From Alphaproteobacteria bacterium (GTDB taxonomy: Bacteria; Pseudomonadota; Alphaproteobacteria; UBA828): 64,000 bases of DNA. The stretch is taken from contig CBDEFM010000002.1 of NCBI GenBank assembly GCA_965237415.1, positions 896,001-960,000 on the forward strand, written 5' to 3'. The notes under the pieces were generated by a model. It searched no databases, was not told the DNA's origin, and was given only the letters and a program-made list of their open reading frames with translations. The position numbers were made by a program, and so were the translations under genes. Shown one piece after another: positions 2,462 through 27,503 of the stretch. The first letter of the stretch is position 1; the number at the start of each line of letters is the position of its first letter.

Positions 2462-2466
2462 CGACA

Positions 2467-5667: not shown

Positions 5668-5679
5668 TTGCCGTCCTGT

Positions 5680-5950
5680 GAGTTATGCCCGATTTTGGGT
5701 GACGGCGTGATCAGGCGGCGGCGCGAGTTTTGGTTTCGTCGATCTGCATACCGTCTTTGAATCTCACCCCTTCGATGACCTTGGGCAACTGATTGTTTCC
5801 CATGAGCCGCCGCCAGGTCTTGCTGGCGGTGGTGATCAGCTTGAAGACCATGGCCAGAGTTGTCCCGTGAGACAAGCAGCCCTTGGTGCGCACGGTGCGG
5901 TGGCGGACGGTAGCGAAGACGCTTTCGATGGGGTTGGTCGTCCTGATACG
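5680..5950 (-). mobile_element. IS256 3' fragment with terminal IR
   Basis: GAGTTATGCCCGATTTTGGGTGA terminus plus the last ~80 codons of the 6452-7714 transposase. Confidence 0.9.
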
Positions 5951-6358
5951 CCACCGTGGGCAGCCGTGGGCTCGCACCGTTGCCGACTTCAACGCGTTCC
6001 GCCATGTGCCGTTTCACCGTTGTAGTTCTGCTGGAACCCTGACCAAGGGTAGAGCGGGTCAGGCAGGCTAAGGCGTTCGCGTTACACTTGCGCGACGGAG
6101 AGGTGCCGCACGTCCGTGTTCGGCCGGCTCAAGGCCAGTGCGACCGCGACCGGCCCCGCGAAACGGTCCAAATTGAACAGTAGTATAACGTAGACGGCAT
6201 GGCCACGATCTAGTTGGATGGTGGAGCGCAGACAAGGCCTGCCACGGACGACCTCTGGTGAGAGAGCGGTTCGTATCCCAGCGCCGACGGAGGTTCGTCC
6301 GCCCGTGCGCCCAGCCGCAGTGCCTCGATCACGGTCGGCGGCGTACGGGCGGCAGTGA

Positions 6359-6420
6359 TTGTACACCCTCATCGGCACCGCCAAATTGAACGACGTCGAC
6401 CCGCAGGCCTGGCTTGCCGA
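6359..6420 (+). pseudogene. IS66 TnpC C-terminal remnant
   Basis: Translates LYTLIGTAKLNDVDPQAWLA, the typical IS66 C-terminal motif; cut by IS256. Confidence 0.8.
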
Positions 6421-7812: not shown

Positions 7813-8331
7813 AACCGGAACTGCGCAAGACCGCTTCCCCCGTCGGCTCTAGTCTAAAATCCACTATGTTTCCGAATACACCAGTATTGAGAGTCAGAAC
7901 CGAGTAGCGGACGCCGCCGAACGTAAATTGTCTATTGGTCAATGCTCCTACAGTTTGGGATAGATCACCGCTAAAGTCGGGATGCCAGTAACCCACATTG
8001 TTGAATCCTCCAGAGAAGTTCTCCTGCCCCACTGTCAGCGTGATGCACCAGATGTCCAATGGGTCGGACGGATCGCAGGGGTCCGCGCTGGAGCGCGGAA
8101 TCGTGCCGTTGACCCGCATTTTATGACTGAAGAGGTGGACTCGGTGTAGGTACCGGTACCTGCCGGGGTCCGAGAGTGGACCCCATTGCGAATGCTCCAG
8201 TCCCCGGCAGAGGTGTTGTCCTCGTCGTTCGACGTGGTAGTCACCACCTGCAAGTTCTGGTTAGAGCTGCTGGTGATCACGACAAAGAGATCGGTGTTAA
8301 AGCCGAGAACCGTGCTCGCGGGAGCCGTAAA
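7813..8331 (-). pseudogene. Internal fragment of a large repetitive surface protein
   Basis: Two ORFs joined by a frameshift at ~8120: ..TTSNDEDNTSAGDWSIRNG..VIK/MRVNGT..DIWCITLTVG..; Thr/Ser/Gly-rich, cut on both sides by IS256 elements. Confidence 0.6.
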
Positions 8332-8447
8332 GAGCTATGGCCAGAAGTTGGTGACGGGGTGAAGGGTTAAGGCGGCGTATCGTGGGGGTAATCGAGCCTC
8401 CACTTCTCCAACGAAGGAGTGATACGCCGTGAGTGACAATAACGTTT

Positions 8448-8631
8448 CCTGCTTATCCATGAAGCTCAGCAAGGCTGCCGAGACGCAACGTATGAGCCAT
8501 CGCGGTTTCCAGTCGCTGTGCCATATCCGAGTCCGCACCGTGCAACTCCCGCCTACGTCGTTGTGACCTCGTCGGACTTAGACACGAGCAGGAACAAGGC
8601 ATCGGTGAGCGGACTTTCATGGATAAGCAGG
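8448..8631. mobile_element. 184-bp MITE copy 1
   Basis: 16-bp perfect TIR CCTGCTTATCCATGAA; 8-bp TSD TAACGTTT on both sides. Confidence 0.94.
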
Positions 8632-8638
8632 TAACGTT

Positions 8639-9883
8639 TTGAAGCTTTCCCAGCCATCGACGTTTTCCGATCGGTTGACCGAGGTGCTGCGCAGCGGCGC
8701 CCGGTCCCTGCTGGCGCGGGCGGTCGAGGCGGAGGTTGCCGGGTTCCTTGATGGCCACTCCGAGGCGCGCACCGAAGAAGGCCGCCGACGGCTGGTGCGC
8801 CACGGCCACCTGCCCGAACGCGAGATCATGACCGGCATCGGCCCGGTTGCGGTTCGCGCGCCACGCGTTCGCGACCGCACGGGCCAGGGCGCCGACCGCA
8901 TCCGGTTCAGCTCCGCGCTCCTGCCGCCTTATGTGCGGCGCTCGAAGAGCCTCGAAGTCCTGATCCCCGTGCTCTACCTCAAGGGCATCTCCACGGGCGA
9001 CTTCGCCGAGGCGCTGGCGGCCTTGCTCGGGCCGGACGCCGGCGGCCTGTCGGCCTCGACCGTGGCGCGGCTCACCGAGGTTTGGGCGGACCAGCACGCG
9101 CACTGGCTGAAGCGGGATCTGTCGGCCAGGCACTATGTCTACTTCTGGGCCGACGGCATCCATGTGCAGGCCCGGCTCGAGGACGATGCGCAATGCCTGC
9201 TGGTCATCATCGGCGCGACGCCGGAGGGTAAGAAGGAACTCGTAGGCCTCATCGACGGGGTGCGCGAGAGCGCCCAATCGTGGCGCGAGCTGCTACTTGA
9301 CCTCAAACGGCGCGGGCTTGCGGTCGCGCCCGAACTCGCCATCGCCGACGGCGCGCTCGGCTTCTGGAAGGCGATCGAGGAGGTGTGGCCCCGGACCCGC
9401 AGCCAGCGCTGTTGGGTGCACAAGACCGCCAACGTGCTCAACAAGCTGCCCAAGAGCCAGCACTCGAAGGCAAAGCGTGCTCTCCAGGAGATCTGGATGG
9501 CCGAGACCAGGAACGACGCAGACAGCGCCTTCGACGCCTTCATCGAGACCTGCGCCGTCAAATACGACAAGGCGGCCGCCTGCCTGGTCAAGGATCGCGC
9601 GACGATGCTGGCGTTCTACGACTTTCCCGCCGAGCATTGGAAGCATCTGCGCACCACCAACCCCATCGAAAGCACAGTCGCCACCGTGCGACACCGTACC
9701 GTGCGATCCAAGGGATGCCTCTCCAACAAGACGGCGCTCGCCATGGTCTTCAAACTCGCCCAGGCGGCACAGAACAGTTGGCGCCGCCTCGACGGACACA
9801 ACCAGTTGCCCAAGCTGATCGTCGGCGTAAAGTTCATCGACGGAATCGAAGCCGTCAGGCAACAACCTCAAGCCGCCGCCTGA
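8639..9883 (+). CDS. IS256 transposase (native GTG start ~8429 separated by the MITE)
   Basis: Same DDE motifs as 6452-7714; the original N-terminus VSDNNVLKLSQP is recovered when the MITE and one TSD are removed. Confidence 0.85.
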   Translation: MKLSQPSTFSDRLTEVLRSGARSLLARAVEAEVAGFLDGHSEARTEEGRRRLVRHGHLPEREIMTGIGPVAVRAPRVRDRTGQGADRIRFSSALLPPYVRRSKSLEVLIPVLYLKGISTGDFAEALAALLGPDAGGLSASTVARLTEVWADQHAHWLKRDLSARHYVYFWADGIHVQARLEDDAQCLLVIIGATPEGKKELVGLIDGVRESAQSWRELLLDLKRRGLAVAPELAIADGALGFWKAIEEVWPRTRSQRCWVHKTANVLNKLPKSQHSKAKRALQEIWMAETRNDADSAFDAFIETCAVKYDKAAACLVKDRATMLAFYDFPAEHWKHLRTTNPIESTVATVRHRTVRSKGCLSNKTALAMVFKLAQAAQNSWRRLDGHNQLPKLIVGVKFIDGIEAVRQQPQAAA

Positions 9884-9915
9884 CCCAAACCGTCACCAAG
9901 ATTCGGCTATAGCTC

Positions 9916-10530
9916 CTGATGGCGACGCACACGCCGCTGTTCTTTGGCAGCGCGGCAGTGATGGCGTCTCCTGCGGGATTGTCGTCGCGATATCCCTGCG
10001 CGACAGCCCACTTCATCACCGCTCCGATACGCTGGCGCACCCGCCGCATGGTCTCGTTCTTCGTATGCCAGTGCGGGATCAGGACGGCCATCACGTCCGC
10101 TGTGTCGATTTGGTCGACCCGCTTCTGCCCGAGCCGCCGCATGGCGTAGTTCCTTAGGCTCGCCCGCCATTGCTTCTCGCTCTTGCCGGCGTCCTTCCAG
10201 CCTTCGCAGTGGATGCCGATCACGGTCTCGACCGCCTCGGCGAATGTCGGCACGTCCGGCTGACGTTTGAGTGCGAGCGGATCGCCGCCCGCCCGTGCAA
10301 TCTTCCGGTACTCGAAGGCCGTTTGCCGGGCTTCGGCCAGCGTGACATACGGAAAGCCACCCAACCCTGCGTCACGGCGAACGCCGTTGACGGTGCCGCG
10401 CCATATCCATTGCCTTGAGATCGATTTCCGCTTGCGCGATTGGCAAACCCGCAACCTGAGGCCGTGTTCGTCGCCGTAGACCCCAGGCTGGTCGACGTTT
10501 CGGACAAGAGCTGCCGTTAGTCGTCCTCCA
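9916..10530 (-). pseudogene. P4-like tyrosine integrase, N-terminal half only
   Basis: Arm-binding domain GLRLRV..WIWR..RRDAGLGGFPYVTLAEAR and core-binding region; catalytic domain lost at the IS256 boundary. Confidence 0.88.
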
Positions 10531-10819
10531 GTATAGCCACAGGTCCGACGCACGGACGATTTGGTGCCTGCTCCGTCCGACGCATCCAAACCCTCCATGG
10601 CCTAGAAGCCTTCTAAAATCGTACAGACCATTTGGTACATGGCCGGACATATCCCGTGTTACCGACACAACCCGGGCGCTCGTGTTGACGACGCGCTTGG
10701 CCGACGGTTAGACTCGCTACCCATCCGCAGCAGGACGCAACGATAACAATGGCTTGTGGGGAGGCTGAGGGGGCAGTGTCGCACTACAGCCGGGCAGTGA
10801 CGGGTTGGCAGGAGTCGGT

Positions 10820-11902
10820 ATGAGCGACATCGCCGTCGACCTGATCAACGTTACCAAGCGTTTCGGGCGGGATATCCTCGCCGTCGACGATCTGTCCCTG
10901 CACATCGCGCAGGGCGAGTACATTTCCCTCATCGGCCCATCGGGGTGCGGCAAGACCACGACGCTCCGCATGATCTCCGGCTTCGACGAACCGACCGACG
11001 GCCAGATCCTCATCGCTGGACACGACTGCACCCACCTCGAGCCGCACGAGCGCAACACCGCCATGGTTTTCCAGCACTTCGCGCTGTTCCCGCACATGTC
11101 GGTGGCGCAGAACGTCGAGTTCGGCCTGCGCATGCGCAAGGTGTCGGCGGCGGAACGCTCCCGGCGGGCGCTTGAGATGTTGCGCGCCGTTGACATCGAC
11201 GACCTGGCCGACCGCCCGATCCAGCAGCTCTCCGGCGGCCAGCAGCAGCGGGTGGGCTTAGCGCGCGCCCTAGTCACGCGCCCCGACGTGCTGCTGCTGG
11301 ACGAACCGCTGGGTTCGCTAGATGCGAACCTGCGCTTGCGCATGCAGCGCGAGCTGAGGCGCCTCAACACCGATTTCGGTGTCGCCTTCGTGCACGTCAC
11401 CCACACCCAGACCGAGGCCTTCGCGGTCTCCGACCGGGTGGTCATCATAAATCAGGGCCGGATCGAGCAGATCGGCCCGCCCGAGGAGGTGACCCACCGC
11501 CCGAAGAACCTGTTCGTCGCCCAGTTCGTGGGCAAGAACAACATCCTTCAGGGCGAGATCACCGGCGTGGAGGGGGGCATCGCCACCGTCGCCGGGCCGT
11601 CCGGCACATTCCGCGCGCGCATCGCCGACGACGCGCCGGCACGCAAGGACTGCCACGTGGTGGTGCGCGCGAGCCTCACCAATCTGGTGACCAACGGCGA
11701 GACGCCGGACAACACGGTCGAGGGCGAGGTGGCGTTCTCCATCTTCGAGACCTCGCAAATCGAGTTCAACGTCGACCTGCCGAGCGGCGACTCGCTCCGC
11801 GTGGACGAGTACGAGCCGCCGGCGACGATCACCGCGCTCAAGCGCGGCGACAAGGTGAGGGTGGGCTGGAACGCGGACGATGCCCTGGTGGTGTTCGAGT
11901 GA
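10820..11902 (+). CDS. PotA-like ABC ATPase
   Basis: GPSGCGKTT, LSGGQQQR, LLLDEP, C-terminal TOBE-like region. Confidence 0.93.
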   Translation: MSDIAVDLINVTKRFGRDILAVDDLSLHIAQGEYISLIGPSGCGKTTTLRMISGFDEPTDGQILIAGHDCTHLEPHERNTAMVFQHFALFPHMSVAQNVEFGLRMRKVSAAERSRRALEMLRAVDIDDLADRPIQQLSGGQQQRVGLARALVTRPDVLLLDEPLGSLDANLRLRMQRELRRLNTDFGVAFVHVTHTQTEAFAVSDRVVIINQGRIEQIGPPEEVTHRPKNLFVAQFVGKNNILQGEITGVEGGIATVAGPSGTFRARIADDAPARKDCHVVVRASLTNLVTNGETPDNTVEGEVAFSIFETSQIEFNVDLPSGDSLRVDEYEPPATITALKRGDKVRVGWNADDALVVFE

Positions 11903-11962
11903 GCGCCCGGGCCACGCCGGCACGTGGGCGCGGGCGGCCGTGACCGGCGGGGCGGCAGTCAC

Positions 11963-12868
11963 GTGACGGACGTCGCACAAAGCCCTCCCAAGGCGCTTTC
12001 GCCGGGGATGACACTCACCAAGAAGCGCGCGCGCCAAGCCCTCCTGCTGGTCGCCGCGCCCACCATCCTGATGGTGCTCTTCTGCGGCATCCCGCTGGTC
12101 TCGGTCGTCGTCTTCAGCTTCTACAAGCCCTGGGCCTACGGCATGAAGCCGGGCTTCGTGTTCGACAACTACATCGAGTTCTTCGGCACCGCGACCTACC
12201 TGCAGACCCTCGGCTTCACCTTCCTGATCGCCATCATCGTGCTGCCGCTGATGGTGCTGCTCTGCTATCCCGTCGCCTACTACGTCTGCTTCTTCGTGAA
12301 GAGCGAGCGGCTCAAGCTCTACATCCTGCTTCTCTGCATCGTCCCCTTCTGGACCAGCGCGCTGATCCGCATGGTGGCGTGGCTGCCGCTGCTCGGGCGC
12401 AAGGGGTTGATCAACCAGATTCTGATGGGGATCGGCATTATCGACGAGCCGGTCGAGATCCTGCTCTACAGCCAACCCTCCATGGTGTTCTCCATGGCGA
12501 TCATCTGGTCGGTCTTCATGATCGGCCCGATCTATTTCTCCATGGCCAAGATCGACCGCCAGGTGATCGAGGCGGCGCGCGACCTCGGCGCCTCGGCCTG
12601 GACCACCTTCTGGCGGATCATCGTCCCCCTCACCAAGCCGGGTCTGGCGACCGGGATCCTTTTCGTGTTCGTCGTCATGATGGGCGAATTCGCGATCCAA
12701 AAGTTCATCGGCGGCGGCAAGACGACCATGCTGGCCAACGTGCTCATCCAGCAGCAGAGCCTCCTGCAGTGGCCCGCAGCGTCGGCGGTGGCAGTGGTCA
12801 TGGTGCTGGTCTCGATCCCAGTGATCGTGCTGATCTTCCAGTTCGTCAAGCTGCGTGAGGAGCTCTGA
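11963..12868 (+). CDS. PotB-like ABC permease
   Basis: Hydrophobic helices; PFWTSALIR; EAARDLGA. Confidence 0.92.
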   Translation: MTDVAQSPPKALSPGMTLTKKRARQALLLVAAPTILMVLFCGIPLVSVVVFSFYKPWAYGMKPGFVFDNYIEFFGTATYLQTLGFTFLIAIIVLPLMVLLCYPVAYYVCFFVKSERLKLYILLLCIVPFWTSALIRMVAWLPLLGRKGLINQILMGIGIIDEPVEILLYSQPSMVFSMAIIWSVFMIGPIYFSMAKIDRQVIEAARDLGASAWTTFWRIIVPLTKPGLATGILFVFVVMMGEFAIQKFIGGGKTTMLANVLIQQQSLLQWPAASAVAVVMVLVSIPVIVLIFQFVKLREEL

Positions 12869-12871
12869 GCC

Positions 12872-13753
12872 GTGCCGGAGCCCACGAGCTATCACGTCGC
12901 CAAGTTCGGCTGGGTGAAGATCGTGCTCGCGGTCTACGTGATGATCTTCGTGCTGATGCTCTACGGGCCGTTCATCGTCATGGCGATCCTCTCCTTCCAG
13001 GGCGAGAGAGGCGGGCCGACCTTCCCCATGCAGGGGACGAGCATTTTCTGGTACGAGCGGCTCTTCAACCCGTCGGGCACGGCACGCGACATCGGCGAGT
13101 ATGTCGGCGATTTCGGCAATGCCGGCCTGCGCTCGCTGGTGCTCGCGCTGCTCACCATGACCATCTCCACGGTGCTTGCCACCATGGCGGCGCAGGCCAT
13201 GCGCGCGCGGTTCGTGGGCGCCGGGCCGATCTTTTACGTCTACCTGGTCGGGATCATGATCCCGGGCGTCACGGTGGGCCTGGGTCACGCGCTCTTCTGG
13301 CAGGGCATCGGCATCGACAAGCACTGGCTGGGCACCACGCTGCCGGTCCACATCCTGTGGACCTTCCCGTTCTGCTTCATCGTGATGTTGACGGTGTTCA
13401 ACCGCTTCGACCGCTCCACCGAGGAGGCGGCGATGTGCCTCGGCGCCAACAGCTGGCGCACCTTCTGGCACATCACGCTGCCGATCATGAAGCCGGGGAT
13501 CATGGCGTCCGCGCTCTTCGGCTTCACGCTCTCCTTCGACGAATTCGCGCGCACCGTGCTGGTGTCCGGATCGCAGAACACGCTGCCCCTCGACGTACTG
13601 GGCGCGACCACGATCCGCATCACGCCACGCATCTTCGCCGTCGGCGTCATCATCACCCTCATCTCGTTCGCGGTGATCGGGATATTTGGCTACCTGATGA
13701 CCGCGAGCCGTTACCGGCCTCGCTTCACGGGCCAAGAGGAGCACCAGGTGTAG
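12872..13753 (+). CDS. PotC-like ABC permease
   Basis: EEAAMCLGA, FTLSFDEF, TLP motifs. Confidence 0.92.
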   Translation: MPEPTSYHVAKFGWVKIVLAVYVMIFVLMLYGPFIVMAILSFQGERGGPTFPMQGTSIFWYERLFNPSGTARDIGEYVGDFGNAGLRSLVLALLTMTISTVLATMAAQAMRARFVGAGPIFYVYLVGIMIPGVTVGLGHALFWQGIGIDKHWLGTTLPVHILWTFPFCFIVMLTVFNRFDRSTEEAAMCLGANSWRTFWHITLPIMKPGIMASALFGFTLSFDEFARTVLVSGSQNTLPLDVLGATTIRITPRIFAVGVIITLISFAVIGIFGYLMTASRYRPRFTGQEEHQV

Positions 13754-13820
13754 TCGGGCCGGCCGGGCGCCGCCCGGACCGGATTCGATCGGAGAACGGA
13801 GACTTCAAAGGGAGGAAACT

Positions 13821-15179
13821 GTGGATAGCAAGCATCTCGAAACCAAATACGAACGTCTGTCGGATCGGATGGATCTCCATACCGCGATGGCGGCCGAAGA
13901 GAAGGCGATCAAGCGCTTCCGCGACGCCGAGGCGGAGGAGAAGACGGGCGACGGCATTGACCGCCGGACCTTCCTCGCCGCAGCGGGCGTGACCGCGGCG
14001 GCCGTTGGCACCGGCCTCAGCGCCGGCACCGCGCGCGCGGGCTTCGCGGACCGTGTGGCCGGCATCGAGCAGGACGACCCGATGCAGACCATCGGCCTCG
14101 GCGTCTCGGTGCAGGAGCGCTTCTTCAACAGGTTCAAGGAGGACACCGGCCTCGACGTGACCGGGACGGTGGCGGGCTTGAGCGAGATGATCTCCAAGTT
14201 CATCACCGGCGGCAACAAGACCTACTCGATGATCGAGACCAACGCCTACCGCCAGCCGGCGCTGCGCGAGGCCGAGGTGATCGTGCCGATCCCGGCCGAG
14301 AAGATCACCAACTGGGAGTTCGCCGATTCGCTCTATACCGAGCCCGGCCATATCGGCGCCGACGACGTGACCGGCTGGCCGTCCAAGATCGTCTATTGGG
14401 ACGAGAACAAGGACTCCTTCTACGGCGTGCCGCAGTTCTACAACATGGACGCGCTCGGCGTGCTGCCGCACAAGTTCGCGCCCACCCAGCCGGATTTCGC
14501 GATCCCCGATTCGCTCGGGCTGCTCTACACCGGCAAGTGGCGCGACGTGGATGCGACCGGCAAGACCTCGATCCAGAACGACGAGCTGATGGGGCCGCCG
14601 CGCGCCTACAGCTTCCTCTGGAAGAACGGGATCATGGACCCGCCCAAGGTCGGCAACACCGACATGCAGCCGGATGAGGTGAAGGAGGTCATCGACTACC
14701 TCATCGCCGCCAAGAACGACGGCGTGTTCCGCCTCATCTGGAACAACTACGGCGAGGCCGTGAACCTGCTCGCCTCCGAGGAGGTGTGGGGCATGGACTG
14801 CTGGAACCCGGTGGTCGAGGACGTGAAGAAGCGCGGCATCCCGTGCTGGTACGTCGATGTCTTCGAAGGCACCGCCGCCTGGGTCCACACCATGTGCCTC
14901 TCCAGCGAGGCGCCGGAGCCCGAGGTCGCCATGGCCTACATGGACTGGTGCCTCGACGGCTGGTGGGGCTCGGCGGTGGCGCCCCAGGGCTACTATTCGC
15001 CCTCGCCCGCCCCGGTGCTCAACTATCTGAGCGAGGAGGACTATCGCACCTGGTACCTGGGCAAGGGCCGCGACACCGGCCCGAAGACCAGGCGCCAGTC
15101 CAACATCGCGTTCTGGATGGTGTGGCCGACCCACGTCACCAATTACATCAAGGAGTGGAACCGCTTCAGCGCGGCCTGA
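13821..15179 (+). CDS. PotD/PotF-like substrate-binding protein, Tat-exported
   Basis: IDRRTFL twin-arginine motif followed by hydrophobic stretch and ARA; operon position; paralog at 24200. Confidence 0.85.
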   Translation: MDSKHLETKYERLSDRMDLHTAMAAEEKAIKRFRDAEAEEKTGDGIDRRTFLAAAGVTAAAVGTGLSAGTARAGFADRVAGIEQDDPMQTIGLGVSVQERFFNRFKEDTGLDVTGTVAGLSEMISKFITGGNKTYSMIETNAYRQPALREAEVIVPIPAEKITNWEFADSLYTEPGHIGADDVTGWPSKIVYWDENKDSFYGVPQFYNMDALGVLPHKFAPTQPDFAIPDSLGLLYTGKWRDVDATGKTSIQNDELMGPPRAYSFLWKNGIMDPPKVGNTDMQPDEVKEVIDYLIAAKNDGVFRLIWNNYGEAVNLLASEEVWGMDCWNPVVEDVKKRGIPCWYVDVFEGTAAWVHTMCLSSEAPEPEVAMAYMDWCLDGWWGSAVAPQGYYSPSPAPVLNYLSEEDYRTWYLGKGRDTGPKTRRQSNIAFWMVWPTHVTNYIKEWNRFSAA

Positions 15180-15200
15180 TCCGCTCCTGTTCGACCAAGA

Positions 15201-15237
15201 GCGGCGCGGCCGAGAGCAAGATTATCGGCCGCGCCGC
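15201..15237 (+). terminator. 13-bp stem hairpin between the SBP and chaperonin genes (terminator or mRNA stabiliser)
   Basis: GCGGCGCGGCCGA...TCGGCCGCGCCGC with no U-tract. Confidence 0.5.
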
Positions 15238-15273
15238 CGCTAACCGCCGCCGCTGCGCGAGGAATATCGTCGG

Positions 15274-16869
15274 ATGGCGCTGGCGCGGCCTAAGCACATC
15301 AAGACAGGCGGCGAAGCCCGCGAGGCGCTGATGGTGGGCTTCGGCCGCGCCGCGCGGCTCGCGGGGCTCACGCTCGGCCCCCACGGCGGCCGCGTGGTGC
15401 TGGAGCGCGCGGACGACTATCCCGAGCTCACCCGCGACGGCTTCACCGCGATCAGGGACCTGGAGGACGACGACCGCTTCGCGACCCTCGGCACGGAGCT
15501 GCTCAAGGCCTGCGTCAAGAAGACCCGGGACGCCGTCGGCGACGGCTCGACGACCACGGCGCTGCTCGCCGGCGCCTTCGCGAAGGCAGGACTGCGCCTG
15601 GTGGCGGCCGGGATCGACCCCCCCTCGGTGCGGCGCGGCTTCGACGGGCTCACGCGCGACGCGCTGGAAGCACTGAAGCGGCAGAGCGGCCCCGTTGGCG
15701 GCCACACGATGCTAGCCCAGCTGGCCCTCGTTGCGGCCGACGGCGACGACGAGATCGCGGGCCTCGTGGCCAAGGCGGTGGAAAGGCTCGGGCCCGAGGG
15801 CGTCGTCAACGTCTCCTATCATCAGAGCGTCGATACGACGATCGACTACATGAGCGGCATGGCCTTCGACCACGGCCTGCTGTCCCGCAATTTCCTGCTC
15901 AAGGCCGGCGAGACGGCGGTTGCGCTCGACCAGCCCCACCTGCTCATGTGCCAGGGCGAGCTGACCGAAGCGGCCCAGCTTGTGCCGGCGATGGAGGCGG
16001 CGCGCCAAAGCGGCCGCAGCCTGCTGGTGCTGGCCCAGGACGTCTCCGACCAGGCGCTCGCGGTCTTGCTCGCCAACCACCGCGAGGGGACGGTCCGCTG
16101 CGCGGCGGTGAAGGGGCCGGACTCCGGCATCTATCGCCATGTCGCGACCGACGACGTCGCGGTGCTCACGGGTGGGCGTCTGGTCGGCGAGGAAACCGGC
16201 CTATCGCCGGAGAAGATCGATGGCGCCGCGCTCGGCAGCGCCAAGCGGGCGGTCGTGGACGGGGTCTCCACCACAATCTTCAGCGGCGGTGGCGCGGCGG
16301 AGGCGGTGGAGCGGCGCGCGGCACAGCTTCGCGACGCGATCGGCCGCGAGCGCAAGAGCTACGACCGGGGCAAGCTGGAGGCGCGCCTCGCCCGGCTCGT
16401 CTCGGGCGTGGCCAACATCCGGGTCGGCGGCGTCACCGAGACCGCCTGGAAGGCGCGCCATCGCGCCTGCGAGAACGCGCTGAACACCGCCCGTGCCGCA
16501 GCGGCCGACGGTGTGGTCGCGGGTGGCGGCGTGGCGCTCGCACGCGCCGCCTTCGCCATGGAGGACGCCGCACCCGGTGCAGGCGATCCCTTGCGCCGGG
16601 CCTTCGCCCGCGCCCTGCAGGAGCCCTTCCGTCGCATAAGCGCGGCCGCCGGCTGCGAGCCGTCGCTCGCCCTCGAAGCATTGAGGCTAAAAGGGGCGGA
16701 GATCGGCTTCGACGCACGCACAGGCGCCTTCTGCCCCTATCTGGAGGCTGGCGTGGTCGATGCGGCCCGCGTAACGGCGACGGCACTCACCAACGCGGCC
16801 GTTACCGCTGGCCAGCTCTTGTCCACAGGATGCGTTGTCGCGCTGGCCCGGCGGCCGGACGCGGTGTAG
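15274..16869 (+). CDS. Divergent Cpn60/GroEL-like chaperonin without adjacent GroES
   Basis: TLGPHG, TRDG, GDGSTT, GMAFDHG, YDRGKLEARLARL, GVVAGGGVAL; no GGM tail. Confidence 0.9.
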   Translation: MALARPKHIKTGGEAREALMVGFGRAARLAGLTLGPHGGRVVLERADDYPELTRDGFTAIRDLEDDDRFATLGTELLKACVKKTRDAVGDGSTTTALLAGAFAKAGLRLVAAGIDPPSVRRGFDGLTRDALEALKRQSGPVGGHTMLAQLALVAADGDDEIAGLVAKAVERLGPEGVVNVSYHQSVDTTIDYMSGMAFDHGLLSRNFLLKAGETAVALDQPHLLMCQGELTEAAQLVPAMEAARQSGRSLLVLAQDVSDQALAVLLANHREGTVRCAAVKGPDSGIYRHVATDDVAVLTGGRLVGEETGLSPEKIDGAALGSAKRAVVDGVSTTIFSGGGAAEAVERRAAQLRDAIGRERKSYDRGKLEARLARLVSGVANIRVGGVTETAWKARHRACENALNTARAAAADGVVAGGGVALARAAFAMEDAAPGAGDPLRRAFARALQEPFRRISAAAGCEPSLALEALRLKGAEIGFDARTGAFCPYLEAGVVDAARVTATALTNAAVTAGQLLSTGCVVALARRPDAV

Positions 16870-16893
16870 GGCCTCGCTTTGCCGCGCCGGCGC

Positions 16894-18939
16894 TCAGGCG
16901 TCGGTGATGCGGAGGAATCCGTAATCGTCGACCCGGAGCGTCTGGCCCGGATGGACGAGCGTGGTGGCGGTATCCTCCTCCACGATCAGCGGCCCCTCGA
17001 GCTCAGCGCCGGGGGGCAGCCGGTCGCGCGCGTAGACCGCGGCCTCGTGGCGGCCGTCTTCGGCGAAATCGGCCATGCGCGCGGGCCTGGACGCCGCCTC
17101 AAGCGAGCGCCCTTCCGCCGAGAGCCTCTTCATCTCGGGCCTCGGCACCTTGGCGGACGCGGTGAGCCGGTAGGTCACGAACTCCACCGGCGTGTCGTCG
17201 AGGCGGAAGGTGTAGGTCTTCTCGTGCGCCTCGTGGAAGGCAGCGAGGATGGCGTCCACCCGCGCGGCGGCGATGTCCACGGGCACCGTGACCGAGTGCT
17301 CCTGCCCGAGATAGCGCAGGTCGATGCGGCCCTCGAAGGCGATCTCCGCCTCCCCCATGTGGGCGTCGGTGCGGAAGTAGCGCTCCGCCTCCTGACGGAG
17401 GCCGGCGAAGACCCCCCGCACGTCGCCCGCCGTCACCTCTTCGTCGCGCCTGAGCACGGTCTGCGTGAAGTCGCGCCGGGGCTCGGTGGCCAGCATCCCC
17501 CAGGCAGAGAAGAGCCCGGGATAGAGCGGCACGATGATCTCCTTCACGCCGAGCTCGCGGCCGAGCGGCGCGCCATGCATGGGGCCGCCGCCGCCGCCCA
17601 CGACCAGCGCGAAGTCGCGCGGGTCGTGGCCCCGCTGGATTGAGACCAGCTTCAGCGCGTTGATCATGTTGGCTTCCACCGTCCGGATGACCGCGACCGC
17701 CGCCGCGACCACGTTGATGCCGAGGCCCTGCGCGATCGTCTCCATCGCGGCCCGGGCCTTGCCCTCGTCGAGATCGAACTGCCCGCCGGCGAAGTTGGTG
17801 GGGTTGATGACGCCGGTGATGAGCTTGGCGTCGGTCACGGTGGGCTCGGCGCCGCCCCGGCCGTAGCAGGCGGGTCCCGGATCGGCGCCGGCGGAGACCG
17901 GCCCCACCTTCAGGAGTCCCGCCTTGTCGAGCCAGGCGATGGAGCCGCCGCCCGCGCCGATCTCGACGATGTCCACAACCGGAACCCGCAGCGGATAGCC
18001 GAACTGTGTGCGGCTATATTCCAGCCGGTATTCGGTCGTGATCTTCGGTGCGCCGTCCTCGATGGTGGTGCACTTCGCGGTGGTGCCGCCGATGTCCAGA
18101 TAGATCACCCGCGGCTCGTCGCAAAGGTCGCTGACGATGGCGGCGCCGTTGCAGCCCGCCGCCGGCCCCGATTCCATGAGGGTGATGGGGTGTTCCTTGG
18201 CCCAGGCGAAGCTGGTGGTGCCGCCGTTGGACTGCATGGCGGCGTAGGCGCAGTTGACGCCGGCGCCGCCCAACGCCTCCTCCAGGCGGCCGAAGTAGCT
18301 TTGCACGATGGGCTGCACATAGGCGTTGAGCACCGCCGTGTTGGCGCGCTCGTACTCGCGCCACTCGCGGGTGATCTCGTGCGAGGCGGTGATCGAGACG
18401 CCCTCCAGCCGCTCGCGCAGATGGGCCGCCGTCTCGGCCTCGTGCCGGGGCGCGACATAGCTGTGGAGGAACTGGATCGCGATCGCCTCGACCTCTTCCT
18501 CCCGGCAGCGCTGGACGATGTGGTCGAGGTCCGTCTTCTCCAGCGGCCTCAGCACGTTGCCCGCTGCATCCATGCGCTCGCGGACCTCGAAGCGCAGCAG
18601 GCGCGGCACGAAGGGGCGCTCCTTCTCGAAGCGCAGGTTGTAGAGGTCGGGCCTGTTGCCGCGCTGGATCTCCAGCACGTCGCGGAAGCCTGCGGTGGTG
18701 ACGAGCGCGGTGCGGGCACCCTTGCGCTCGGTGATGGCGTTGATCACCGTGGTCCCGCCGTGGACGAAGAAGTCCACCTCGCCAGGCGCTAGCCCTGAGA
18801 GCGCGATGGTGTCGATCACGCCCTGGGTCAGGTCACCCGGCGTGGTCAGCGACTTCGCCGTGCGCAGCGTCCCATCGGCGTCGTCGAAATAGACCAGATC
18901 GGTGAAGGTGCCGCCGATATCGGACGCGAGCCGGCCCAT
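16894..18939 (-). CDS. Hydantoinase A / oxoprolinase-family subunit
   Basis: DIGGTFTD, ESGPAAG, EIGAGGGS, SAGADPGPACY. Confidence 0.94.
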   Translation of the reverse strand: MGRLASDIGGTFTDLVYFDDADGTLRTAKSLTTPGDLTQGVIDTIALSGLAPGEVDFFVHGGTTVINAITERKGARTALVTTAGFRDVLEIQRGNRPDLYNLRFEKERPFVPRLLRFEVRERMDAAGNVLRPLEKTDLDHIVQRCREEEVEAIAIQFLHSYVAPRHEAETAAHLRERLEGVSITASHEITREWREYERANTAVLNAYVQPIVQSYFGRLEEALGGAGVNCAYAAMQSNGGTTSFAWAKEHPITLMESGPAAGCNGAAIVSDLCDEPRVIYLDIGGTTAKCTTIEDGAPKITTEYRLEYSRTQFGYPLRVPVVDIVEIGAGGGSIAWLDKAGLLKVGPVSAGADPGPACYGRGGAEPTVTDAKLITGVINPTNFAGGQFDLDEGKARAAMETIAQGLGINVVAAAVAVIRTVEANMINALKLVSIQRGHDPRDFALVVGGGGGPMHGAPLGRELGVKEIIVPLYPGLFSAWGMLATEPRRDFTQTVLRRDEEVTAGDVRGVFAGLRQEAERYFRTDAHMGEAEIAFEGRIDLRYLGQEHSVTVPVDIAAARVDAILAAFHEAHEKTYTFRLDDTPVEFVTYRLTASAKVPRPEMKRLSAEGRSLEAASRPARMADFAEDGRHEAAVYARDRLPPGAELEGPLIVEEDTATTLVHPGQTLRVDDYGFLRITDA

Positions 18940-18953: not shown

Positions 18954-20714
18954 TCAGGCGGCGGCCGCGCGCAGCCTGGCGGTCGCCTCCTCGTCGATTG
19001 CGCGCCCGCCCGCGGCGATGACGACGCCGTAGTCCTCGCGCGCCTGGTCGGCGGAGATGTAGTCCGCGCGCACCTCCGCGAGCACCTCGTCGGCCGGCCG
19101 CTCGAAGGGATCGCCGTAGCCGCCGCCGCCGCCGGTGAACATGCGGATGATGTCGCCCCGCTTCATGATCGTGGTGGGCGCCCTGGCGGCGCGCCGGGCG
19201 TCGTTGCCGACGTGCAGCTCGAAGTAGTTGACCGAGCCTTTGTTGCCGCCCTCGCGCGCCCAGGGTTTCTCGATCGAGCGGCCGTAGCTCGCCGAAAGCA
19301 CCGCGTCGTCGGTCATGATCTCGTACTCGCGGATCGAGCCGTAGCCGCCCCGGTAACGGCCGGCGCCGACGCCGCCCGGCGTGTTGAGCGTGTACTGGTT
19401 GACCCGCACCGGGAACTTCGCCTCCAGCAGCTCGATGGAGTAGTTGAAGGTGTCGCCGTTGGTGATGGGGCTGGTGACGCAGTTGCCGTCACGCTCGTCG
19501 GTGGCGCCCCAGCCGACCATGCTGGGTTCGATCATCACCCAGGGCTCGCCCTTGGCGCGGTCGTGGCCGCCCAGCACGGTCACGCAGAGGCTGTTGGCGC
19601 TGCCCATGCTGACCCGCTTGGGCGCGATGGGGGCGAGCGCCTTCCACGCGAGCTCCGAGGCCTGGCCGGTGCCCTCGTAGTACCAGCCGACCGGCGCGGG
19701 CTTGGTGGCCGTGAACACCGTGCCGTCGGGTGCTACCACCTTCAGCGGCCGGAACCAGCCCTCGTTCGACGGCGACTGGGGATCGACGATCGCCTTGAAG
19801 ACCGTCTTTACCGCCGAGACCAGAGCCGAGCGCGAGCAGTTGACCGGCCCCTGGAGCTGCTCGCAGGAGCCCGTGTAGTCGACGGTGACGGTGTCGCCCT
19901 CGATGGTAACGGCCACCCTGGTCGGGAAGCGCTCCTCGCTGATGCCGTCGCCGTCCACCCAGTCCTCGGCTTCGTAGGTGCCGTCCGGCAGCGCCGCCAC
20001 GGCCTCGCGGCTCACCCGCTCGCTGGTCTCGAGGATATGGCGGAAGGTTTCTGCCACCGCGCGCTTGCCATACTTCTCGCAGAGCTCGAGGCAACGATTC
20101 TCGGCAATGCGGACCGAGGCCAGCGCCGCGTTGAGATCGCCCAGCGCCATCTTCGGCAGGCGCACGTTGGCCGCGATCATCTCGAAGATGGCGTCCTGGC
20201 GCTCGCCTTCCTTGTAGACGTGGATGCCGGGGAAGCAGATCCCTTCCTGGAATATCTCGGTGGCGTCCGCCGGCAGCGAGCCCGGCGACTTGCCGCCGAC
20301 ATCGGTCCAGTGCGAAATCGAGATGGCGAAGGCGAACAGCTCGCCGTCCACGAACACCGGCTTGATGACGCCCACGTCGTTGTAGTGGGTGCCGCCGCGG
20401 TACGGGTCGTTGAGCATGTAGATGTCGCCCGGCCGGATGCGGCCTGCGAACTTCTCCTTGATGATGTTGATCTGGAGCGAGAAGGTTCCGGTGAAGACGG
20501 TGATCCCGTTGGTCTGGGACACCAGCGCGCCGTCCGCGTCGCAGAAGCCGCAGGCGAAGTCGAGCACCTCGTAGATGACCGGGCTCATGCTGCTCCGCGC
20601 GAGCACCACGCCCATCTCGTCGGCCACCGCCAGCAGCTTGCCGCGCACGATCTCGCGGGTCACCACGTCGGTCTCGAAACCACCGCTTTCGCGTCCGTTC
20701 ATGCCGCTTGCCAT
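18954..20714 (-). CDS. Hydantoinase B / oxoprolinase-family subunit
   Basis: NDPYRGGTHYND, HWTDVGG, TGGGGGYGDP. Confidence 0.94.
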   Translation of the reverse strand: MASGMNGRESGGFETDVVTREIVRGKLLAVADEMGVVLARSSMSPVIYEVLDFACGFCDADGALVSQTNGITVFTGTFSLQINIIKEKFAGRIRPGDIYMLNDPYRGGTHYNDVGVIKPVFVDGELFAFAISISHWTDVGGKSPGSLPADATEIFQEGICFPGIHVYKEGERQDAIFEMIAANVRLPKMALGDLNAALASVRIAENRCLELCEKYGKRAVAETFRHILETSERVSREAVAALPDGTYEAEDWVDGDGISEERFPTRVAVTIEGDTVTVDYTGSCEQLQGPVNCSRSALVSAVKTVFKAIVDPQSPSNEGWFRPLKVVAPDGTVFTATKPAPVGWYYEGTGQASELAWKALAPIAPKRVSMGSANSLCVTVLGGHDRAKGEPWVMIEPSMVGWGATDERDGNCVTSPITNGDTFNYSIELLEAKFPVRVNQYTLNTPGGVGAGRYRGGYGSIREYEIMTDDAVLSASYGRSIEKPWAREGGNKGSVNYFELHVGNDARRAARAPTTIMKRGDIIRMFTGGGGGYGDPFERPADEVLAEVRADYISADQAREDYGVVIAAGGRAIDEEATARLRAAAA

Positions 20715-20818
20715 CGCATCGTCCTCCACGGGAGCCTGACGCTCCGCAGTCGCTCCTAGTCTCTCACCGCCACGGAACCGCGGTCAACGCGGGATGCACC
20801 TGCAGGCGGCACTCATGG

Positions 20819-21814
20819 TCAGACCGTGACCACGATTTTGCCGCATTGGGCATTGGATTCCATGTAGCGGTGTGCATCCGCAATCTCCTCCAGCGGGAAC
20901 GCGCGGTCGATCACGGGCGCGAGCGCACCGCTGGCGAGGCCGGCGAAGATGGCGTCCCGCGCCGCCGCGAAGCGTGCTTCGTCGCGCACGAAGTCGAGGA
21001 CCTGATAGCCGACGATGGTAAGCGAATTCGCCAGCATCGGCATGAGCGGATAGGCGGTCTCTCCAGGATGCAGGGCGCCATATTCGTAGATGGTGCCATA
21101 CGGCGCTGCGGCGCCGCAGAGCGTCGTCAGCAGCGGACCTGCAATCGGATCGAAAACCACACGCGCGCCGGCATCGCCGGTGATCTCCATAACCCGCGCC
21201 GGCAGGTCCTCTTCGTCCGTCGCCACCACGTGATCGGCGCCGAAGCCGAGGAGTGCATCCTTCTTGGCTGCGGTCCGGGTGGTCGCGATCACGGTGGTGC
21301 CGCGTTCCTTGGCGATCTGGATTGCGGCGAGGCCGACGCTGCTACTCGCGGCGGTGATGATCACGGCGTCGTCGGGCCCTAGATCGCCATAGTGGACCAG
21401 CGCACCGTAGGCCGTGAGGTAGGCCATCCAGAGCGCAGCACCTTGGGCAGGCGTAAGCTCGGCCGGGTAAGGCGCCGCGATCTCGGCCGGCACCGTGGCG
21501 CTCTCGCCGTAGACGCCCTGCCGGGTCTGGGAGAGGGCGAAGGACGGGACCGTGGCGATGCGTTCGCCCTCATTGACGTTCGTCACCCCTTCGCCGACGG
21601 CTTCTACGACGCCGGCGGCTTCGTAGCCGATGCGGGAGGGAAAGACCGGCCGTTCGTGATAGATGCCCTCGCGCAGCATGACCTCCGCCCGGTTGAGGCC
21701 GATCGCCTCGACCCTGATCCGGACCTCACCGGGCCCCGGATCCACCTCCGGCACCTCGTCGAGGCGCAGCACCTCGGGCCCGCCAGTCTCGTGGAATCGT
21801 ACGATTCGAGCCAT
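20819..21814 (-). CDS. MDR-family NAD(P)H:quinone oxidoreductase-like protein
   Basis: GPEVL, AIGLNRAE, GYEAAG, TAASSSVGLAA, AHRYMESN..GKIVV. Confidence 0.9.
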   Translation of the reverse strand: MARIVRFHETGGPEVLRLDEVPEVDPGPGEVRIRVEAIGLNRAEVMLREGIYHERPVFPSRIGYEAAGVVEAVGEGVTNVNEGERIATVPSFALSQTRQGVYGESATVPAEIAAPYPAELTPAQGAALWMAYLTAYGALVHYGDLGPDDAVIITAASSSVGLAAIQIAKERGTTVIATTRTAAKKDALLGFGADHVVATDEEDLPARVMEITGDAGARVVFDPIAGPLLTTLCGAAAPYGTIYEYGALHPGETAYPLMPMLANSLTIVGYQVLDFVRDEARFAAARDAIFAGLASGALAPVIDRAFPLEEIADAHRYMESNAQCGKIVVTV

Positions 21815-22114: not shown

Positions 22115-23251
22115 ATGCCGCCTATTCCGTCCGCCCTGGAGATCACGCGGGACATCGTCCGCATGGACACCCGCAACCCGCCCGGCCGTGAGGTGGATTG
22201 CGCCCATTATCTGGGCGACCTGCTCAGCGCGGCGGGGATCGAGGTCTCCTATCACGAGTTCGCGCCGGAGCGGACGAGCCTGGTCGCGGTGCTGCGCGGC
22301 GAGGGCGGAAACGGGAAGAAGCCGCTCTGCTTCGGCGGGCATATCGACGTCGTTCCCCTCGGCGTCAAGGAATGGTCGGTCGATCCCTTCGGCGCCGAGA
22401 TCGTGGACGGCAAGCTCTTTGGCCGCGGCACCACCGACATGAAGGCCGGCATCTCCTCATTCGTCCACGTCGCGCTCAAACTCGCGGCTGAGGAGAAACG
22501 CGGCGCGGCGGACATGGTGATGGCGATTTGCGCCGGCGAGGAGACCGGCTGCGAAGGCTCATATCACCTGGCCGAGATCGGCGCGCTCGACGAGGCCGGC
22601 GCCATCGTCATCGCCGAGCCGACCTCGAATTATCCGATCCTCGGCCACAAGGGCGCTCTCTGGCTGAAGGTGGAGACCGAAGGCATCACCGCCCACGGCT
22701 CGATGCCCGAGCACGGCGACAACGCGCTCTACAAGGCGGCGCGCTCGGTGACCAAGCTCGAGGAGTTCGATTTCAACGTGATGCCTCACAAGCTGCTTGG
22801 GAGGTCGACCCTCAATGTCGGCACCATGCGGGGCGGGCTCAATCTCAACTCGGTGCCGGACCACGCCGAGTTCACCATCGACATCAGGACGCTGCCCGAA
22901 CAGGACCACGCGAAGATCCTCTCGGGCCTGGAAGGGTATCTCGGCGACGAGAACAAGATCGCCCGCGTGGTCGATTGCGGCGGTGTGCACACCCCGCACA
23001 CCCATCCGTGGATTCAGGAGATTTACGCGGTGATGGAGCCGATCCTCGGCGAGAAGATCGAGCCGCGCGGCGCGCCCTACTTCACCGACGCCTCGGCGCT
23101 GATGCCGGCCTACGGGCGTCCGCCGACGATAATCCTCGGGCCCGGCGAGATGCACATGGCCCATCAGACCGACGAGTACTGCCCCGTGGCGCATGTCGAG
23201 CAGGCAGCCGAGGTCTATGAGATTCTAGCCCGCCGCTGGTGCGGCTACTGA
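22115..23251 (+). CDS. M20 metallo-amidohydrolase (ArgE/DapE family)
   Basis: GHIDVVP, GRGTTDMKAG, GEETG, AHGSMP, AHQTDEY. Confidence 0.92.
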   Translation: MPPIPSALEITRDIVRMDTRNPPGREVDCAHYLGDLLSAAGIEVSYHEFAPERTSLVAVLRGEGGNGKKPLCFGGHIDVVPLGVKEWSVDPFGAEIVDGKLFGRGTTDMKAGISSFVHVALKLAAEEKRGAADMVMAICAGEETGCEGSYHLAEIGALDEAGAIVIAEPTSNYPILGHKGALWLKVETEGITAHGSMPEHGDNALYKAARSVTKLEEFDFNVMPHKLLGRSTLNVGTMRGGLNLNSVPDHAEFTIDIRTLPEQDHAKILSGLEGYLGDENKIARVVDCGGVHTPHTHPWIQEIYAVMEPILGEKIEPRGAPYFTDASALMPAYGRPPTIILGPGEMHMAHQTDEYCPVAHVEQAAEVYEILARRWCGY

Positions 23252-23388: not shown

Positions 23389-24147
23389 ATGAAGATCATG
23401 ATCATCAACCCCAACTCGTCCCAGGATATGACGGATGCCGACGCGGTGGCTGGGCGCTCGGTTGCGCGGGCGGGAACCGAGGTCGTGGCGGTGACGCCGG
23501 ACTACGCGCCGGCCTCGATCGAATCTTTCTACGACGAATATCTGTGCGTGCCGGGAATCCTCAACGAGATCCGCAAGGGCGACAGCCAAGGCTTCGATGC
23601 CTACATCATCGCCTGCTACGGCGACCCCGGCCTGCACGCCGCGCGCGAGATGACCGACAAGCCCGTGATCGGGATCGCGGAAGCGTCGCTCTACATGGCG
23701 TGCCAGCTCGCGGCGCGCGTGGCGATCGTCACGATCATCCCGCGCTTCCGCGTGCCGGTGGAGGACATGGTCGCGGCCTACGGGCTCAGCAACAGGGTGA
23801 TCGTGCGCACCTCGCCGGTCTACGTGCTCGACGTGGAGCGAGACTACGAAGGCTCTCTGGAGAAGCTGCGCCAGGAATGCTACCGCGCTCGCGACGAAGA
23901 CGACGCCGAGGCGATTTGCCTGGGCTGTGCCGGCTTCGCGGAGTTCGCAGACGAGCTCGAAGCCGAGCTCGGCATCCCGGTGCTCGACGGGGTGGTGTGC
24001 GCCACCAAGACGGCCGAAAGCATCGTCGAGATCGGCCGCAAGACGAGCAAGTGGAAGACCTATCGGTTCCCGGAGCCGAAACCCTTTACCGGGATGCTGC
24101 AGCGGTTCGGCACCGAGGCGCCGGCTGACAGGGCCGCCGCCGAGTAA
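23389..24147 (+). CDS. Hydantoin/allantoin racemase (Asp/Glu racemase family)
   Basis: INPNSS, IACYGDPG, CLGCAG, PVLDGV. Confidence 0.92.
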   Translation: MKIMIINPNSSQDMTDADAVAGRSVARAGTEVVAVTPDYAPASIESFYDEYLCVPGILNEIRKGDSQGFDAYIIACYGDPGLHAAREMTDKPVIGIAEASLYMACQLAARVAIVTIIPRFRVPVEDMVAAYGLSNRVIVRTSPVYVLDVERDYEGSLEKLRQECYRARDEDDAEAICLGCAGFAEFADELEAELGIPVLDGVVCATKTAESIVEIGRKTSKWKTYRFPEPKPFTGMLQRFGTEAPADRAAAE

Positions 24148-27202: not shown

Positions 27203-27503
27203 TGTTGTTAAGCGTGGAAAATTGACCCCCTGTTGGGGGTGATCGGCGTCCAAATTTGACCCCCCATGGTTTGTGTCCATGAACACACCTCGTCGTTTGG
27301 ACGGACGGGGTGGGGGGGAGATGCTGGTTGTGGAAACGATCGCGAAGATCCGTCTGGATCATCTGGTGAGGGGCGTTCCGATCAAGAAGATCGCCCGGGA
27401 TTTGAGGGTTTCGAAGAACACGGTGCGCAAGGTGGTGCGGGGCGATGAGACCTCGTTCAGCTACGAGCGCAAGATCCAGCCGATGCCGAAGCTGGGGCCG
27501 TGG
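27203..27503 (+). pseudogene. Second IS21-family left end plus truncated istA
   Basis: TGTT.. end with two AAATTGACCCC-type repeats; MLVVETIAKIR..IKKIARDLRVSKNTVRKV. Confidence 0.82.

Follow-up and report, generated by a model that had tools for sequence, protein, structure and literature searches.

We describe here GroEL3, a divergent Cpn60 protein encoded at positions 15274-16869 of the forward strand of a 64,000-nucleotide stretch of an alphaproteobacterial genome (the whole stretch is called the window below). The gene closes a row of PotABC-type ATP-binding cassette (ABC) transporter genes, follows directly a gene for a solute-binding protein carrying a twin-arginine translocation (Tat) motif, and converges with a hydantoinase gene pair. 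From its sequence and gene context we tentatively interpret GroEL3, with somewhat less than even confidence, as a lineage-specific group I chaperonin dedicated to this module, probably with a slow ATPase, whose likeliest client would be the precursor of the Tat-exported binding protein.

The frame at 15274-16869, taken for a Cpn60 of 531 residues in a preliminary description of this DNA, is indeed open and full length. Pfam Cpn60_TCP1 (PF00118) matched residues 31-523 (171.8 bits) and solved GroEL chains aligned to residues 7-529 (1aon_A, E 6e-102); this full-length profile and structure match places GroEL3 among the group I chaperonins of the Cpn60/GroEL superfamily. It scored 436.4 bits against the NCBIfam GroEL equivalog model TIGR02348, below the cut-off of 582.1, and 450.4 bits against the subfamily model NF009487, above the cut-off of 352. 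Identity to housekeeping GroEL (that of E. coli, and GroEL1 and GroEL2 of the host) is 35-37% overall, over the full length of a three-domain Cpn60 and without large insertions or deletions. The segments GDGSTT, TRDG and HRACENALNTARAA, listed previously, were all found in the protein, and alignment with GroEL of E. coli K-12 (NC_000913) placed an Asn at the position of D398, as had been proposed. Asp is retained at the positions of D52 and D87, and the ring-interface residues A109, R452, E461 and S463 are kept in the window protein; other changes relative to E. coli GroEL are R197H, Y199L, Y203N, F281S and K327G. The C-terminus (...ALARRPDAV) has no Gly-Met repeats, in agreement with the reported lack of a GGM tail. 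The further claim of a strongly diverged apical region is not supported, the apical domain being 40% identical to that of E. coli GroEL, the equatorial domain 36% and the intermediate domain 31%. GroEL3 therefore departs from housekeeping GroEL at D398, in the Gly-Met tail, in the groES-groEL bicistron and in the equivalog score.

No Cpn10 gene was found in the window, which bears out the earlier remark that groES is not nearby. The window genome (4.75 Mb in 2 contigs) has three Cpn60 genes and two Cpn10 genes; both Cpn10 matches (C2:665302 and C2:2210016) adjoin canonical groEL genes, and GroEL3 lies at C2:911274. The canonical GroELs of the host are 547 and 560 residues long, end in GGM tails and have Cpn10 just upstream, forming two complete groES-groEL operons (L001 1435-3078 and L002 1435-3117, at C2:2210362 and 665632). 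Across relatives, GroEL2 and GroEL1 share only about 65% identity; the GGM tail of GroEL2 is unusually long.

The relatives of GroEL3 form a discrete group. A word-seeded search of 5.8 billion proteins returned 44 of them at 45-94% identity, followed by a sharp fall to ordinary GroELs at 39% or less. When 1.84 billion representatives were searched with a profile, without length limit, only P0031, P0125, the partial P0024 and perhaps P0128 stood above the score level of ordinary GroELs; a Protein Atlas search gave generic GroEL clusters only. In a maximum-likelihood tree of 59 Cpn60 rows, rooted at the midpoint, the GroEL3 clade (21 rows) is monophyletic on a long stem, with a Shimodaira-Hasegawa-like approximate likelihood ratio support (SH-aLRT) of 100, and is divided into two subclades. 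Host GroEL1 and GroEL2 pair together elsewhere. GroEL3 thus belongs to a separate, long-branched clade, in keeping with the preliminary description, and does not group with housekeeping GroEL; the tree rules out a recent duplicate of a host GroEL. Fusions of GroEL3 to a binding protein were likewise discarded, as the long high-scoring proteins (P0124, P0126, P0127, P0129 and P0130) are tandem or extended Cpn60s with no other Pfam family.

Replacement of D398 extends over the whole clade, the Asp being kept in none of 19 members (N in 15, T in 3, S in 1). D87 is present in 19/19 and D52 in 13/19; in the distant subclade D52 is lost in 5/5 members, and T89/T90 are partly Ala. The hinge and pocket residues G32, P33, D87, G192, G410, G414, G416 and D495 are invariant. 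Within the apical groove, F204 and L237 are each found in 18 of the 19 members and L259 and N265 in all of them, and V263 is changed to L or I. Asp occupies position 398 in 188 of 202 further GroEL-family sequences. The remaining 14, eight with Asn there, all lack a GGM-like tail over the final 12 residues (P0150, P0155, P0168, P0172, P0179, P0182, P0187, P0195, P0198, P0208, P0223, P0226, P0231 and P0237). To judge from these sequences, joint loss of D398 and the tail may be a recurrent route to specialised GroEL paralogs.

The ratio of nonsynonymous to synonymous substitution rates (dN/dS) of GroEL3 was 0.18-0.35 (Nei-Gojobori, 7 pairs with dS <0.8), so that neutral evolution, one of the weak points named in the preliminary description, does not apply. 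Neighbouring genes of the cluster gave 0.04-0.32, mostly 0.08-0.18, and in every pair the least conserved cluster protein was GroEL3. Between the window genome and G048, G042, G047, G044 and G008, GroEL3 is 89, 84, 76, 74 and 71% identical, respectively, versus 99, 94, 94, 94 and 93% for the housekeeping GroEL1, a several-fold faster divergence. These dN/dS values and identities indicate that GroEL3 is under constraint, far looser than that on the housekeeping chaperonin. A pseudogene is ruled out by dN/dS and by the intact frame at every full-length locus.

The genes of the cluster and two sites between them are listed below. GroEL3 lies on the same strand as potA, potB, potC and the solute-binding protein gene, 94 nt downstream of the latter, as had been described.

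10685-10714, forward strand: weak sigma-70-like promoter match upstream of potA (9/12 hexamer matches; mean of shuffles 0.5), the sole promoter-like site in 10400-17100
10805-11902, forward strand: PotA-like ABC transporter ATPase (ABC_tran and TOBE_2; 341 bits to PotA, below the equivalog cut-off)
11924-12868, forward strand: PotB-like ABC permease (Pfam/NCBIfam)
12872-13753, forward strand: PotC-like ABC permease (Pfam/NCBIfam)
13821-15179, forward strand: solute-binding protein SBP1, 452 residues, with twin-arginine R48-R49, ARA at 71-73 and a conserved 47-residue N-terminal extension before the motif; the whole signal region is encoded by nt 13821-14039
15203-15235, forward strand: 11-bp GC stem-loop between SBP1 and GroEL3, without T-tract
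15274-16869, forward strand: GroEL3, divergent solo Cpn60, 531 residues, Asn at the position of E. coli D398 and no GGM tail (Pfam, NCBIfam, structure match and alignment)
16894-18939, reverse strand: hydantoinase/oxoprolinase A (HydA), 681 residues, convergent with GroEL3 (Hydant_A_N, Hydantoinase_A and Hydant_A_C; 507 bits to the caprolactamase alpha model, below its cut-off of 1000)
18954-20729, reverse strand: hydantoinase/oxoprolinase B (HydB), 591 residues (Pfam/NCBIfam)
20819-21814 (start approximate), reverse strand: NAD(P)H quinone oxidoreductase-like protein; the family match begins at about residue 177 of a 507-residue open frame
22133-23251 (start approximate), forward strand: M20 ArgE/DapE-family deacylase (TIGR01910, 253 bits, above 217.6; residues 250-608 of a long frame)
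23389-24147, forward strand: gene of the Asp/Glu/hydantoin racemase family (PF01177, 167.9 bits), with a counterpart in L018
24200-25504, forward strand: SBP2, a binding-protein paralog of 434 residues from an internal ATG, with the same N-terminal tag and twin-arginine motif as SBP1

The order is thus potA-potB-potC-SBP1-GroEL3 on the forward strand, hydA-hydB-quinone oxidoreductase on the reverse strand, and deacylase-racemase-SBP2 again on the forward strand. The module encoded here would comprise a PotABC-type importer, two Tat binding proteins, an ATP-dependent hydantoinase A/B, an ArgE/DapE-type deacylase and a hydantoin-type racemase, inherited together with GroEL3. It probably serves the uptake of a hydantoin- or lactam-like cyclic amide, followed by ring opening.

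In order to judge whether this setting is conserved, as the preliminary description had anticipated, we compared 17 GroEL3 loci from species-representative genomes and 8 metagenomic ones. Counts include the window and were restricted to loci with at least 3.5 kb of upstream or at least 4 kb of downstream sequence, respectively; many loci share one genus and are hence not independent, representing roughly seven or eight lineages. Upstream of GroEL3, potABC was found in 18/19 loci (the exception being L022), and a full binding-protein gene stood directly upstream in 17/19 (exceptions L018 and L029) as well as on the short contig L032, so that adjacency of GroEL3 to a Tat substrate is the rule. 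Downstream, an orthologous hydA-hydB pair lay within 10 kb in 13/17 loci and was absent in L019-L022; it was also present on the short contigs L023, L027 and L030. The most distant member, L033 (45% identity), has potABC, SBP, GroEL3, hydB and hydA in this order on one strand. In L019-L021 the hydantoinase pair has been relocated 0.4-2.5 Mb away and potABC-SBP-GroEL3 is still intact. The surroundings of GroEL3 are thus conserved, and the client candidates named beforehand, the Tat binding proteins and hydantoinase A/B, turned out to be its two conserved partners. A second SBP-GroEL3 pair, which diverges further (identities 75% and 58%) and lacks potABC, is found at L022 in the same genome as L018, next to a convergent N,N-dimethylformamidase-beta-like gene and, upstream, a TauD-family dioxygenase and a TerB-domain gene.

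Twin-arginine motifs were confirmed in both SBP1 and SBP2, and TatC is encoded in the window genome. Binding proteins linked to GroEL3 carry a conserved extension of 27-46 residues, MD[SDN][KR]H[LV]..[RK][HY]..., before the twin-arginine motif. This tag was found in 17/17 clade rows of the binding-protein alignment, 15 of them intact and two (P0272 and P0292) frameshifted downstream of the tag, and in the 8/8 GroEL3-linked loci examined, with F at one tag position in L022. Genome-wide, the tag followed by the RR motif gave four regular-expression matches, two of which resemble non-coding frames; the others are SBP1 and SBP2. A sample of 401 genomes of the class yielded the wider SBP1 family (30-41% identity, tblastn) in five further genomes, at six loci. 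All six encode the transporter and a Tat binding protein, and the hydantoinase pair is present in 5/6 stretches (not in L047, a 9.7-kb contig); the tag was absent from these outgroup binding proteins (0/6 loci and 0/6 alignment rows) and no Cpn60 gene was found near the modules (0/6 loci). No clade-specific extension comparable to the tag was detected in HydA or HydB, the only difference being a 6-residue insert in HydA. A predicted model of SBP1 from a 15-row alignment had a mean predicted local distance difference test score of 35.6, too poor for a fold search.

The distribution of GroEL3 was surveyed in 49 genomes of the order. The protein was found in 19 of them, namely the window genome, 17/20 others of its genus and the one genome representing a second genus, and in 0/28 genomes of the other twelve genera. 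The binding-protein clade was present in 18/19 genomes with GroEL3, the sole one without a match being 62% complete, and in 0/30 without it. A hydantoinase ortholog was detected in 4/4 GroEL3 genomes tested and was absent from the GroEL3-less G035, where the best full-length match was 49%. In G038, G044 and G008 this ortholog (83-88% identity) lies elsewhere in the genome and not beside GroEL3. Since the orthologs persist with GroEL3 and are missing from G035, the transporter-SBP-GroEL3-hydantoinase module is gained and lost as a whole. Taken together, the persistence of the operon without the hydantoinase genes, the outgroup modules without GroEL and the tag make the evidence lean towards the binding protein as client.

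How such a chaperonin might act can be outlined from its residues. D87, the P-loop, the GGG motif, the hinge glycines and a mostly hydrophobic helix H/I groove are kept and D398 is replaced by Asn, and on these grounds we read GroEL3 as a slow cycler that binds ATP. It is cytoplasmic and would either borrow one of the two housekeeping GroES proteins or work without a lid, two possibilities that have also been raised for MmoG (PMC9324122). ATP would probably be bound and the shape changed, with slow hydrolysis giving long dwell times of the client. Tat substrates must fold before export, and the binding-protein precursor would be folded by GroEL3 in the cytoplasm before Tat export. By analogy with the Tat redox-enzyme chaperones, the extension before the twin-arginine motif may be a recognition element for GroEL3. 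In E. coli, the D398A variant is reported to bind ATP normally, to retain about 3% of wild-type ATPase activity and still to encapsulate and fold its clients (PMC3326522). The preliminary interpretation, a pathway-specific chaperone for the Tat binding proteins or the hydantoinase, is partly supported; the ATPase impairment and holdase activity that it also proposed are suggested by residues only.

Pushed further, the same observations would make GroEL3 a tag-directed Tat escort, which recognises the MDxKHLxxRH... segment of SBP1 and SBP2, holds or folds these proteins in a slow-ATPase cage and releases them in an export-competent state. We regard this as doubtful. Were it true, GroEL3 would be the first dedicated, tag-directed proofreading chaperone for Tat export in the GroEL family, and tag and chaperonin would have been acquired together.

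Several points weigh against our main reading, with the binding protein as client. In L029 (60% identity) potABC is followed by GroEL3 with no binding-protein gene between them, and in L018 the binding protein at the locus is reduced to a 207-residue remnant; both loci retain the convergent hydantoinase pair. In L031 (54%) the gene immediately before GroEL3, and co-oriented with it, is hydantoinase-A-like. These three loci indicate that GroEL3 can sit with hydantoinase genes without an intact adjacent binding-protein gene. Co-occurrence of the hydantoinase ortholog with GroEL3 (4/4 versus G035) cannot separate the binding protein from the hydantoinase as client. The tag-GroEL3 correlation possibly reflects a single event at the base of the clade and is suggestive only, because the relatives are not independent. 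As to mechanism, the E. coli data concern Ala at 398, and GroEL3 carries Asn. Finally, one contig of the RNA library X11 also spans the convergent GroEL3/hydA junction; DNA carry-over is therefore possible and transcription is not proven.

The same loci feed the best-surviving alternative, that GroEL3 is a dedicated folding or assembly chaperonin of the linked hydantoinase A/B and has the binding protein and transporter as neighbours through the shared pathway only. We consider it unlikely on balance. It accounts for the pair within 10 kb downstream in most loci and on the three short contigs, its colinearity with GroEL3 in L033, its retention in L029, the HydA-like gene abutting GroEL3 in L031, and the presence of orthologous HydA in every GroEL3 genome tested together with its absence from G035; it also parallels MmoG/MimG, which accompany large multi-subunit monooxygenases. 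It is less at ease with L019-L021, where the pair is far away and potABC-SBP-GroEL3 stays together, with L022, an SBP-GroEL3 pair with no orthologous hydantoinase pair nearby, and with the outgroup modules that have hydantoinase pairs and no GroEL. The window genome moreover contains 34 HydA and 43 HydB paralogs (full-length tblastn matches) versus one GroEL3, with no dedicated chaperonin for the rest, and HydA and HydB show no clade-specific extension save the short HydA insert. Encapsulation by GroEL is usually quoted as bounded at about 60 kDa, and both subunits exceed this figure. The relatives G008, G035, G038, G044 and G047 have 18-35 HydA matches each, reflecting a very large hydantoinase/oxoprolinase expansion.

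GroEL3 might instead be an accessory chaperonin without a single client, carried as cargo of a mobile catabolic island and giving general or multi-protein support, permeases included. This we find rather improbable. The cluster is bracketed by mobile elements of the IS256 (2514, 6452, 8639), IS1595 (25743) and rve (976, 27915, 29841) types and a truncated integrase, GroEL3 is patchily distributed (17/20 in the genus, 1/1 in the second genus, 0/28 elsewhere in the order), and groEL genes often stand alone, a groEL without groES beside it being reported from 770 of 4,861 genomes (PMC5406781). A generalist, however, would be expected to keep the catalytic Asp, the GGM tail and slow evolution, none of which GroEL3 has, and the position right after the binding-protein gene is held down to 45% identity.

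It is still less probable that GroEL3 is no longer a folding machine and binds ATP without turnover as a regulator, scaffold or moonlighting binder. The loss of D398 throughout the clade, the loss of D52 in all five members of the distant subclade with T89/T90 partly Ala, and the recurrence of such variants among other divergent GroELs (14/202 without D398 or GGM tail) would agree with it. The substrate-groove positions nevertheless remain hydrophobic or invariant (F204, L237, L259, N265, and V263 as L or I), and the conserved hinge glycines fit a working chaperonin cycle.

That GroEL3 serves the soluble di-iron monooxygenases of the genome in trans, in the manner of MmoG/MimG, is highly improbable, for although six matches to the di-iron hydroxylase family PF02332 occur at several loci of the genome, the nearest (C2:1314634) is about 400 kb from GroEL3 (C2:911274), and PF02332 is found in 45/49 genomes, including G035, G043 and the GroEL3-less genera, a distribution that does not follow that of GroEL3 (19/49); a monooxygenase companion was rejected on these grounds. 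The statement that no such monooxygenase is present is correct for the window; the six matches lie elsewhere in the genome (C2:1314634, 1665233, 3737382-3740351 and 3802274-3805576), none near a Cpn60 gene.

With the binding-protein precursor kept as the likeliest client, some features of the window remain to be reported. The stem at 15203-15235 is kept in four close loci (including L017, L008 and L013) with a variable loop, and the folding energy of the SBP1-GroEL3 spacer is ordinary (z -0.79); transcripts may be processed or partly terminated at this stem-loop, which would set the ratio of SBP to GroEL3. Metatranscriptome libraries of three studies contain contigs with this stretch, several runs being labelled sponge metagenome. 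The SBP1-GroEL3 junction is bridged by contigs of the RNA libraries X11 (14756-15431) and X17 (14756-15673), from two studies; both read through the stem-loop, and contigs of X12 and X19 end near 15215.

The catabolic cluster lies between flanks dense in insertion sequences (IS), at 976-10598 and 25743-31508. They contain IS256-family transposases (2514-3467, 6452-7714 and 8639-9883), an IS1595-type transposase (25743-26702), rve-type transposases (976-2196, 27915-29099 and 29841-31508) and a truncated phage-type integrase without its catalytic part (9855-10598). Close relatives have a second, distant hydA-like gene (36-39% identity) after SBP2 (L017 20369-21574; L028 20773-21591). Because the IS1595 element occupies this position in the window, the cluster here may be truncated after SBP2. 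Outside the cluster, tRNA-Ala(GGC) is at 36873-36948 and tRNA-Gln(TTG) at 42237-42310.

A few cytoplasmic enzyme systems are known to have a GroEL paralog dedicated to their pathway, with clients and mechanisms mostly unresolved. A literature search of titles and abstract openings returned no GroEL paralog in an operon for an ABC importer or a hydantoinase, or linked to a Tat binding protein. GroEL3 offers a compact, testable case, with a natural substitution of Asp398, no co-chaperonin of its own and a fixed place behind a tagged Tat binding protein. If the link between tag and chaperonin is real, it would join chaperonin biology to Tat quality control and provide a natural slow-cycling GroEL variant to study. 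In practice, GroEL3 may have to be co-expressed when the transporter, the binding protein or the hydantoinase is produced in a foreign host; these proteins are of interest in amino-acid biocatalysis.

Compared with housekeeping GroEL (that of E. coli and host GroEL1/GroEL2), GroEL3 shares the GDG(S/T)TT loop with D87, the G414-G416 triplet, D495, the hinge glycines and much of the hydrophobic apical groove; it differs in lacking D398, the GGM tail and an adjacent groES, in scoring below the equivalog cut-off and in diverging faster. Similar in arrangement is MmoG, a solo GroEL-like gene in a catabolic operon that is proposed to fold or assemble the operon proteins, possibly with housekeeping GroES (PMC9324122). 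GroEL3 matches MmoG/MimG in standing alone among catabolic genes, with no GroES gene to go with it. The genes for MmoG/MimG, however, belong to or adjoin operons of soluble di-iron monooxygenases, and GroEL3 has no such neighbours: its partners are an ABC importer, Tat binding proteins and a hydantoinase, so that context and distribution set it apart. In the gbu (gamma-butyrobetaine) cluster of gut Clostridia, native GroES/GroEL-like proteins are reported to be needed at 37 C (PMC10653785). That system likewise links a chaperonin to a specific catabolic cluster, but it was cloned with an upstream groES-like gene and has cytoplasmic enzyme clients, whereas GroEL3 has no groES partner and stands behind an exported binding protein.

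Genes for the Tat redox-enzyme maturation proteins are described as lying next to that for the Tat substrate, whose signal peptide these proteins bind in the cytoplasm, ahead of export (PMC3316669). GroEL3 resembles TorD/DmsD/NapD in that it directly follows a Tat substrate with an unusual, conserved signal N-region. These are, however, small dedicated chaperones of another fold, and the binding protein has no known cofactor; as a Cpn60, GroEL3 is not a member of that family and the comparison is one of working only. Chlamydial GroEL2/GroEL3 and other degenerate paralogs are also extra GroEL copies without GroES or GGM tail, but the window protein matches the corresponding NCBIfam models with 127 and 120 bits versus cut-offs of 600, and belongs to another lineage and context. 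Among these systems, GroEL3 is best described as a variant of the pathway-dedicated GroEL paralogs, new in its partners: an importer, Tat binding proteins and a hydantoinase.

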